16,776 nucleotides of DNA. Origin: a virus. The DNA lies in the UHGV virus genome UHGV-1844214. One strand, written 5' to 3'. Within the stretch, counting starts at the first letter, position 1. Every line of letters starts with the position of its first letter. The notes beneath the pieces were generated by a model that did no database searches, was not told the DNA's origin, and worked only from the letters and a program-made list of their open reading frames with translations. Positions 9,942 to 11,504 of the stretch are shown here, piece after piece. Made by a program: the position numbers and the translations under genes.

Positions 9942-9952
9942 GAGGAATTAAT

Positions 9953-10576
9953 ATGTCATCAATCCGCTTAACTACGAGAATGAAAGAGGAAATCGCTCGT
10001 AACGCTTTAATTAAGTCTGGGGTTTTCACTGAACTTGAAGAAGTAACAAAGTTAAAGAACCAGCTTGCACTTGACGCCAGAGTTATTGCGTTTGGCGGTA
10101 AAAAGAAAACTGAGGAAGTTGATCAGTTATCATCCAAGTTGGTGGCTATAAGTGAAGAACTTGAAAAGATTGGATGTTCATTTTACTCATACGATTTTTG
10201 TTCTACTTCAATTTATCTGACTGTATCTGGCAGAAGGGTTGGATGGCATTCATATGGGAAAGACGGCAACGGCGAAGATATATTGCTTCCTACTCCGACA
10301 AAAGATAAATGCATGTTTGACGCAGAGCACGAAATAACAAAAAGGTTTGATGAAATCTGCGCATTACAACAAAAACTTGAAGCCAAGAAAAAGGATATCG
10401 AATCAAATGTATGGGCTGCTTTAAACTCAGTCACAACAGTTAAGCGACTCATTGAAGTTTGGCCTGAAAGCAAAGAATTGCTACCAAAAGAAGCAGATAA
10501 AGCAAGTACAGCACTTCCTGCTTTACGGGTAGAGGATTTGAATAAGATGATTGGACTTCCTTCCGAGGCCGCATAG
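9953..10576 (+). CDS. Hypothetical protein (207 aa), first gene after N; function unknown
   Basis: Internal ATG at 9953 with GAGG SD, 11 nt after the N stop; AT-rich coding sequence; no motif I can assign. Occupies the lambda ral/sieB position. Confidence 0.6.
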   Translation: MSSIRLTTRMKEEIARNALIKSGVFTELEEVTKLKNQLALDARVIAFGGKKKTEEVDQLSSKLVAISEELEKIGCSFYSYDFCSTSIYLTVSGRRVGWHSYGKDGNGEDILLPTPTKDKCMFDAEHEITKRFDEICALQQKLEAKKKDIESNVWAALNSVTTVKRLIEVWPESKELLPKEADKASTALPALRVEDLNKMIGLPSEAA

Positions 10577-10591
10577 TCGGCCTTTATTTTT
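10567..10591 (+). terminator. Intrinsic terminator candidate at the end of the 207-aa gene
   Basis: GGCCG-catagt-CGGCC hairpin (stop codon in the loop) followed by TTTATTTTT. Confidence 0.5.
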
Positions 10592-10614
10592 GGCATAAAC
10601 AATATGGGGTAAAA

Positions 10615-10941
10615 ATGAAAGTTTTAATGGTTTATGAAAATGTTCCAGAGTCGACTGAAATCTATATTTTTGATGCCAATGAAGATGAAGTTAACGATTT
10701 GAAATTGTCTCACGGCAATTACACAAATGCTAATTGTGATGAAAGTATCGAAAAAGCACTATCACGTGTTCTTGTCAGAATTAGTGATCCAGAACATTGT
10801 GATGATGATTGGCTTTCTTATTGTGGAGCGGTAAAAACTGATGCAGGAAAATGGAGTAAAAGTAAAGTTGATAACTCAACTCCAATCATTATGAAAGATA
10901 GTGATATTGAAATGGTAATAATAACCGGAATGATTATGTAG
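10615..10941 (+). CDS. Hypothetical acidic protein (108 aa); function unknown
   Basis: ORF track; many Asp/Glu residues (..DANEDEVNDL.., ..EHCDDDW..); very AT-rich; flanked by terminators on both sides (moron-like). Confidence 0.55.
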   Translation: MKVLMVYENVPESTEIYIFDANEDEVNDLKLSHGNYTNANCDESIEKALSRVLVRISDPEHCDDDWLSYCGAVKTDAGKWSKSKVDNSTPIIMKDSDIEMVIITGMIM

Positions 10942-11045
10942 GCTGCGAATAAGCACTGTGTATTCATTCCAACAAGTGAATACACGGAGCAATGTCGCTC
11001 GTAACTAAACAGGAGCCGACTTGTTCTGATTATTGGAAATCTTCT

Positions 11046-11074
11046 TTGCCCTCCAGTGTGAGGGCAATTTTTTT
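11046..11074 (+). terminator. Intrinsic terminator
   Basis: TTGCCCTC-cagtgt-GAGGGCAA hairpin followed by TTTTTTT, directly upstream of the SD/ATG of the next gene. Confidence 0.6.
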
Positions 11075-11086
11075 GACGGAGGAATT

Positions 11087-11504
11087 ATGAAAATTACAGA
11101 TATTCTGGTTAATCCAGATAATTACGACCAATTCAATATCTCTACTCAATCGGTTGATTTGGGATGTGCAACTGTCAGCGCATGGCTACTTAATGGTAAA
11201 CAGTTGGATAAATGCCTTGATGCACATATGACGGTTAACAGCTTCCTTGCAGAAAAAACACACTGGCAAGATGCTGGGGGGGAAATATGCTGGATGGCTT
11301 GAAAGCATGGGATTTGAATATCAATCTGATGAAGGTTGGTGGAGCATTATAGCTGTAACGCCTGAGACAATAGAATGCTTCGTTAAATACTCCAACGACG
11401 ATGACTATAAACACCAGGTAGATTCTGCGATAGAAAGATATAAAAGAAAATCATTCAACCACGAAATATCATCAGTTCTTGATTTCATAGAAGTTTTCAA
11501 ATAA
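11087..11504 (+). pseudogene. Hypothetical gene split by a frameshift at a G7 homopolymer (two overlapping ORFs, about 138 aa if fused)
   Basis: Frame A starts at ATG 11087 (GGAGG SD) and stops at 11302; frame B runs to 11504; they overlap across GGGGGGG at 11276-11282. Removing one G fuses ...WQDAGG to KYAGWLESMGFEYQ... Confidence 0.45.

Follow-up and report, generated by a model that had tools for sequence, protein, structure and literature searches.

In phage lambda, the segment of the early-left (PL) operon located between N and cIII carries sieB, orf28, ral and ea10. RNA polymerase modified by N reads through terminators of the tL1/tL2 type. In lambdoid phages, insertions made of a promoter, a gene and a terminator are called morons. 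Here we analyse an AT-rich island at positions 9942-11504 of a 16,776-nucleotide stretch of the virus genome UHGV-1844214 (the window). The window is a lambdoid phage segment with its early-left operon on the + strand. Behind N, the island contains gene A (9953-10576, 207 amino acids (aa), Nmad5 family), gene B (10615-10941, 108 aa, acidic, phrog_4658) and gene C (11087-11504, phrog_8967, frameshifted; 138 aa when intact). The three genes are all on the + strand and each has a Shine-Dalgarno (SD) site, that of gene A being GAGGAA at 9942-9947. We observe three exchangeable protein cassettes set between three conserved non-coding linkers (L, PreS/tL2a and R) that are 92-98% identical to lambda. 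The best overall explanation, in our view a rather probable one, is that the island is the hypervariable N-to-cIII segment of a lambdoid PL operon, with accessory roles for its proteins in the lytic phase. The finding is ordinary in kind, one more configuration of the classic N-cIII mosaic hotspot. It nevertheless corrects the annotation. One supposed orphan belongs to a named family, one supposed insulating terminator is that of a small RNA (sRNA), and one gene is either a pseudogene or the product of a sequencing error.

Alignment with lambda delimits cassettes and linkers. Linker L (10573-10602) is 93% identical to lambda 34087-34059. It starts at the stop codon of the Nmad5 gene, as it starts at the ral stop codon in lambda. 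The middle linker, at 10953-11073, matches lambda 34045-33925 over 121 nucleotides with 98.3% identity and no gaps. Linker R (11505-11564) is 92% identical to lambda 33544-33483, which is the ea10/cIII junction. An earlier note, made from the sequence by eye, had placed the three genes in the lambda ral/sieB/ea10 slot, and these three matches around the slot bear it out. The open reading frames (ORFs), SD sites and stop codons that it had listed are also present at their positions. The junctions with lambda are exact: Nmad5 replaces sieB-orf28-ral and gene C replaces ea10. Thus, relative to lambda, genes A and C are replacements whereas gene B is an insertion. With its SD site, gene B forms a discrete cassette of about 343 nucleotides (about 10603-10945) inserted in the lambda ral-PreS spacer, between 34059 and 34045. 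The cassette is flanked by 'GGCATAAACAA' and 'GAATAAGCACTG'; only two bases lie between these sequences in lambda. The segment therefore resembles the lambda N-cIII region by its position, its strand logic, its three non-coding linkers, nutL upstream and tL2a/PreS in mid-segment. It differs in that lambda sieB, orf28, ral and ea10 are missing from the window, and in the extra gene B between the linker found downstream of ral and PreS. Consistently, no island protein matched the Ral, SieB, Ea10 or GP17 families in Pfam or PHROG, and, in line with the earlier note, none of the three is a characterised lambda housekeeping protein. Three small or antisense ORFs, 10213-10602 (-), 10818-10985 (-) and 10992-11090 (+), were rejected as genes for want of any family match; the last is also broken by T6/T7 length variation in relatives.

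Among 5426 complete E. coli genomes, 2236 matched the island at least in part. The PreS block probably explains most of these matches, because gene A occurs in only 211 genomes by DNA search (about 4%), gene B in 16 and gene C in 37. The full trio was found in none of the 5426. Every pairwise combination exists elsewhere: A and C without B (loci L001 and L028), A and B without C (L003), and B and C without A (L034). The exact gene B protein is widespread in enterobacterial assemblies (991 index blocks), always in the N-cIII slot. Its upstream partner is Ral, a 149-aa ORF, a 112-aa ORF or Nmad5, with gene B often directly behind Ral, and its downstream partner is GP17, cIII or gene C. The presence of all pairwise combinations together with the absence of the trio is the pattern expected under recombination in the linkers. 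Homologous recombination inside these conserved sequences would thus shuffle the cassettes. The island illustrates neatly how accessory genes can be swapped in lambdoid early operons thanks to non-coding linkers that are conserved and include an sRNA gene.

The middle linker deserves particular attention. In lambda, the spacer from ral to ea10 encodes an Hfq-dependent sRNA, LPR1, since renamed PreS, whose 3′ end is at tL2a (Silverman et al., bioRxiv 10.1101/2024.10.31.621285). It measures about 88 nucleotides, is processed to about 68 nucleotides, and gives a northern signal on induction and none in lysogens. PreS binds Hfq and activates dnaN translation by base-pairing, with alaS being repressed; without it, neither lambda DNA replication nor the spontaneous phage yield reaches its full level. 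According to the authors, it is conserved in 2,537 genomes, conservation being defined as at least 92% identity with at most 3 gaps (bioRxiv 10.1101/2024.10.31.621285). The window block, gapless and 98.3% identical to lambda, falls well within this definition and is more conserved with lambda than is N. Its differences from lambda are position 10974, in the loop of an upstream hairpin, position 11066, in the terminator stem (U.G to U-A), and a U7 tail in place of U6. Positions 10986-11065, including the internal unpaired part of the RNA, are identical to lambda. The block has a stable predicted fold (z=-4.74). Its place, as in lambda, is behind the ral slot and ahead of the ea10 slot, and it terminates at tL2a; its upstream neighbour is gene B, where lambda PreS has ral. 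It was matched in 325 phage records. In the Sf6 record, this block bears the labels 'bsq4 boundary sequence' and 'terminator, homology to lambda tL2A'. Rfam 15 gave no match at the gathering threshold anywhere in the window, PreS block included. Judged by sequence, block 10953-11074 is a conserved sRNA locus, the orthologue of lambda LPR1/PreS. Since 89 nucleotides separate the end of the hairpin at 10958-10985 from the end of the U7 tail (11074), the orthologue of about 88 nucleotides is placed at about 10986-11074 on the + strand. Hfq binding, lytic-phase expression and dnaN activation are features shown for lambda PreS; the window copy is known from its letters. PreS would be the constant functional element of the segment.

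Hairpin structures accompany the linkers. The AU-rich hairpin at 10958-10985 (+; 11-bp stem in the minimum free energy fold) lies inside the conserved block and abuts the putative 5′ end of PreS. It is the same as in lambda apart from the loop base 10974 and could mark a processing site releasing the sRNA from the PL transcript. At the other end, the intrinsic terminator tL2a (11046-11074, +), an 8-bp GC-rich stem followed by U7, forms the 3′ end of PreS. This hairpin is strong, with -13.2 kcal/mol and z=-3.49, and none of 200 shuffled sequences folded as well. The hairpin overlapping the Nmad5 stop codon (10565-10591, +), also followed by a T-tract, is weak: -11 kcal/mol, z=-1.45, with 16/200 shuffles folding as well. 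Its right arm and tail belong to linker L, so that half of the hairpin behind gene A is conserved linker. The earlier note had proposed terminators after the 207-aa and the 108-aa genes; both hairpins and their T-tracts are indeed present, the second as a strong terminator and the first only as a weak one. Linker R contains two further tandem hairpins that had not been listed (11504-11522 and 11536-11557, +), the second with a T-tract. Together (11504-11557; -25.7 kcal/mol, z=-4.75) they probably constitute a further tL2-type terminator.

The base composition of the island sets it apart from its surroundings. GC content is 37.8% over 9942-11504, against 46.5% for the window, 48.2% for the left flank and 46.0% for the right flank, the lowest value of all 1563-nucleotide windows sampled. 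GC at third codon positions is 33% in gene A, 23% in gene B and 31-36% in gene C, as compared to about 45% in N, cI and recT. The AT-richness seen by eye is therefore confirmed by calculation.

As to the expression of the cassettes, a consensus promoter scan of the island returned 8 promoter-like sites, as compared to 9.9 ± 3.3 in shuffled sequences. All were 9/12 matches, and none was placed upstream of a cassette. The elements of N-dependent antitermination are in place. The nutL boxB (GCCCTGAAGAAGGGC, 9490-9504, +), the loading site for N antitermination, is intact, and the stretch around it, 9440-9527, aligns at 96.6% identity with lambda 35583-35496, where the Nutl site is annotated. The antiterminator N (9615-9941, +, 108 aa) matches PF11438 (N36) with E=1.5e-26 and has 94% DNA identity to lambda N. 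Since the cassettes lack detected promoters of their own, point the same way as PL and have an intact nutL upstream, they should be lytic-phase genes. Lytic-phase, N-antiterminated transcription from PL is most likely, as far as sequence features can indicate. The cassettes would be transcribed only after infection or induction, by N-modified RNA polymerase reading through the hairpin terminators. The lambda PreS northern data agree with lytic-phase expression of the locus.

These features bear on the proposal, also made in the earlier note, that the island has the architecture of terminator-insulated morons. Gene B does resemble the morons of HK97/HK022-type phages. It interrupts, as a separate unit, a stretch that is continuous in lambda, its composition is deviant (32.7% GC), and it is near-identical across unrelated prophages. 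It differs from them in having no detected promoter of its own and in that the terminator behind it belongs to the pre-existing PreS/tL2a. Indeed, lambda and more than 300 phage records have tL2a/PreS but no gene B, so that a terminator proper to the gene is not found. The moron-like, terminator-insulated architecture is thus only partly borne out.

A related alternative is that the three genes are morons expressed in the lysogen and giving superinfection exclusion or anti-phage defence, like lambda sieB. The slot holds sieB in lambda, and SieB genes or genes labelled 'superinfection exclusion protein' fill it in related prophages. The AT-rich, foreign composition, the clean insertion of gene B and the succession of genes and hairpin terminators would also fit. 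However, the island lacks an above-chance promoter, the SieB genes of the slot are on the opposite strand, unlike A, B and C, and the terminator ascribed to gene B already exists in lambda without this gene. In addition, the adjacent PreS RNA is absent in lambda lysogens. No PADLOC model matched any of the three proteins at E≤0.1, and all three families have homologues in strictly virulent phages. We therefore regard lysogen-expressed exclusion or defence as rather unlikely; superinfection exclusion, as suggested in the earlier note, receives no direct support. The virulent-phage homologues, together with the absence of PADLOC matches, rather favour host takeover or counter-defence over lysogen-expressed exclusion. 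With modest confidence, the proteins would most likely be lytic-phase accessories of this kind.

The gene B protein matches phrog_4658 (E=2.4e-38); no Pfam, PADLOC or NCBIfam family was matched, and sequence and profile searches against PDB sequences returned nothing. An exhaustive HMMER search gathered 59 representative relatives, most of them about 100-110 aa long, with near-invariant residues P11, H33, N38 and G105. The structure is predicted with very high confidence and has no solved relative in the PDB. In the phage genome collection, every relative is distant (29-35% identity) and comes from a virulent phage. Among others, in a T4-like Pseudotevenvirus, the relative lies three genes behind ndd and is followed by a terminator; in a Klebsiella Jedunavirus, it adjoins the DNA polymerase gene. 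The product of gene B, small and acidic, would have a new fold; virulent myoviruses share it in their early or accessory regions.

The acidity of gene B has led to the idea of a DNA-mimic anti-restriction factor of the Ocr, ArdA or Arn type. The protein has a pI of 4.36 and a net charge of -11, with 21 D+E and 10 K+R. The whole family is acidic, with a median net charge of -11 over about 108 aa (range -17 to +1) and a median pI of 4.37. The frequent location directly behind Ral, a restriction-alleviation gene, and the T4-like homologue in the early ndd region point the same way. Nevertheless, we found no sequence or fold relationship to the known mimics of these types. The acidity that the earlier note had seized upon is therefore a family-wide trait, while the link to a known mimic is missing, and we hold a DNA-mimic role to be unlikely.

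Independently of function, the DNA of gene B is 98-100% identical across prophages (L005-L012 and L034) that differ in immunity region, N type and recombination module. The genes that flank it and are shared by those prophages are 94-98% identical. That gene B exceeds its shared neighbours in identity suggests a recent horizontal spread of the cassette.

Gene A could be assigned more precisely. The earlier note had found no known family for any of the three proteins. This has to be revised: in addition to the phrog_4658 and phrog_8967 assignments of B and C, the 207-aa protein is a full-length match to Pfam PF18757, Nmad5 (237.9 bits for a cut-off of 27, E=1.5e-70, profile positions 1-206 of 206). 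It also matches phrog_1965. PF18757 is present in all 71 homologue clusters of gene A, and RefSeq labels its orthologues 'Nmad5 family putative nucleotide modification protein'. Homologues are also carried by mEp235, HK542-type, Kapi1 and Stx phages. In the contexts examined (E. coli, Klebsiella, Providencia and Serratia prophages, and Kapi1), Nmad5 orthologues are mostly the first or an early called gene behind N or the repressor. Outside E. coli, gene callers left 0.4-1.1 kb uncalled upstream, where a small N-type gene could lie. In temperate phages of four genera the family sits close to, or right at, the beginning of the early-left operon, and the question arises of any tie to nucleotide modification. 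As a separate observation, in many Stx2a-converting phages (e.g. LC616032.1, 9855-10376) the Nmad5 match spans residues 34-207 only, and each record has two matching places, which may point to a truncated or interrupted gene.

The name of the family derives from M6-like Pseudomonas phages, in which Nmad5 sits in a thymidine-hypermodification cassette. One may accordingly ask whether Nmad5 takes part in a DNA base-modification pathway that chemically shields phage DNA from restriction. Beyond the name, tblastn showed that M6-like phages carry homologues of the C-terminal part of gene A. This part is the most conserved of the family, with the motif VWAALNSVTTxKRLIEVWPESKEL...LPAL.V.DLN.MIGLP. 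A study of the Tmn defence system also classes nmad5 as a modification gene (PMC11846954). On the other side, no base-hypermodification enzyme was found among the ORFs of the window, where the one DNA-modifying gene is the nin-region Dam, distant from Nmad5. Likewise, no base-modification genes were found near the orthologues in Kapi1 and in the E. coli, Klebsiella, Providencia and Serratia prophages examined. The predicted structure of gene A is helical and coiled-coil-like, with no enzyme-like fold or enzyme relative, and sequence and profile searches against PDB sequences returned nothing. Participation in base modification appears quite improbable to us.

The one experimental link that we found for Nmad5 is to Tmn, and neither that study nor the M6-like phage paper reports an experimental enzyme activity. 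In a Dhillonvirus, a single K-to-E change in nmad5 (K216E, phage SMA8) led to escape from Tmn (PMC11846954). The gene also resisted cloning, apparently on account of its toxicity (PMC11846954). Using BLASTP, K215-K216 of the Nmad5 protein of KS_S9, a phage from the same study, was aligned with K164-R165 of gene A, a near-invariant pair. The escape change appears to correspond to R165 of gene A, assuming that SMA8 and KS_S9 share their numbering. The Nmad5 proteins of Dhillonvirus SMS22/SMA8 belong to the same Pfam family, which gene A matches over the full-length model, and share the C-terminal motif with the basic pair at the apparent escape site. They differ from gene A in their length (at least 254 aa versus 207) and setting, among the head genes of a virulent phage as compared to first after N in a temperate one. 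Identity is only 32%, over the C-terminal 100 residues.

With modest confidence again, we favour for Nmad5 the role of a non-enzymatic helical adaptor, interacting with host systems such as Tmn or monitored by them. We tentatively propose, as a possible reading and not a favoured certainty, that lambdoid Nmad5 is an early, PL-expressed adaptor in the cassette position of Ral, acting on or sensed by host immunity (for example Tmn) rather than a nucleotide-modifying enzyme, and that the gene B protein is a small inhibitor of a new kind, directed against a host defence or replication factor. If this were true, the N-cIII segment would form, with PreS, a combined RNA-and-protein module for host takeover. 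The residual interest of the island lies in the role of Nmad5 outside modification clusters and in that of phrog_4658 in temperate and virulent phages alike.

Several points limit the overall explanation. The promoter scan was a rough one, and weak or non-canonical promoters may have escaped it. Since lambda sieB, an exclusion gene expressed in the lysogen, occupies this very slot, position alone decides neither for a lytic nor for a lysogenic function. The 5′ end of PreS in the window is derived from the published RNA size. The counter-defence role of genes A and B is drawn from position, distribution and a single genetic link, established in an Nmad5 homologue as distant as the 32% identity over 100 residues indicates. 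Moreover, deletion of nmad5 left Tmn sensitivity unchanged and gave no escape (PMC11846954). Finally, residues 183-191 and 204-207 of the Nmad5 model are predicted with low confidence, and these stretches may leave room for a cryptic active site.

The third cassette appears disabled in the window. The two halves of gene C lie in different frames, the first at 11087-11302 and the second reaching to 11504, and correspond to residues 1-67 and 66-138 of the 138-residue phrog_8967 profile; no match was found in Pfam, PADLOC or NCBIfam, and searches against PDB sequences returned nothing. As the earlier note had recognised, the gene is frameshifted. Alignment with intact 417-nucleotide copies shows that a +1 frameshift results from G7 at 11276-11282 in place of GGAGGG. 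The latter is found in 2 aligned E. coli copies and in 19/19 viral contigs. All 37 E. coli genomes carrying gene C differ from the window allele in the 100-nucleotide stretch around the G run, and exact-pattern scans of viral, genome and metagenome collections retrieved no copy of the G7 allele. A synonymous GGA-to-GGG change would create a G6 run, and one further G the frameshift. The G7 allele thus looks private to the window sequence and reflects either recent pseudogenisation or a homopolymer sequencing error. Programmed frameshifting was rejected, all relatives reading through in a single frame with GGAGGG. Intact homologues have 138 aa and form only 10 clusters, all from Enterobacteriaceae. 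Relatives at 65% identity occur in rV5-like virulent coliphages, within runs of small hypothetical genes.

The disruption of gene C, the absence of the exact trio from the complete E. coli genomes and an AT-rich composition typical of poorly adapted foreign DNA could be taken to mean that the island is decaying cargo without current function, the frameshift being one symptom, yet this is very improbable given that A and B are intact and belong to families whose members keep invariant motifs at identities as low as 25-45%, with confidently predicted folds, that gene B is at least 99% identical in 15 of 16 E. coli genomes with different prophage backgrounds, and that the embedded sRNA is 98% identical to functional lambda PreS.

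The surroundings of the island are those of a lambdoid phage. Upstream on the + strand, a cI-type repressor (8579-9280; HTH_3 and Peptidase_S24) precedes a PL-like promoter (9406-9434). Directly 3′ of the repressor lies a bidirectional terminator-like hairpin (9311-9332), within a region (9303-9338) that is 89% identical to lambda 35834-35799, the 3′ end of rexB. As this match stands right behind the repressor gene, the immunity-region terminator seems to come next to it, and rexA/rexB seem to be missing between cI and PL. Downstream, cIII (11588-11722, +; PF08134, E=2e-30) ends the variable slot and is followed by kil (11707-11859, +), two small ORFs and recT (12249-13160). The first of the small ORFs (11856-11963, 35 aa) matches only the N-terminal 32 positions of the 60-residue phrog_17766 and overlaps the start of the second (11941-12252, 103 aa; phrog_3486, unknown function). 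This overlap is probably no frameshift, because Kapi1 has the identical arrangement. The minus strand carries cII, O/DnaB-type replication genes, the nin region, Q and holin. The nin region includes a Dam-type DNA N6-adenine methyltransferase (3770-4324, minus strand; PF05869, E=1e-64). At 1354-2714, also on the minus strand, a Q-type antiterminator (PF03589) is preceded by a calcineurin-like metallophosphatase, of the NinI/PP-lambda type by its position; this is a standard lambdoid late-regulation context.

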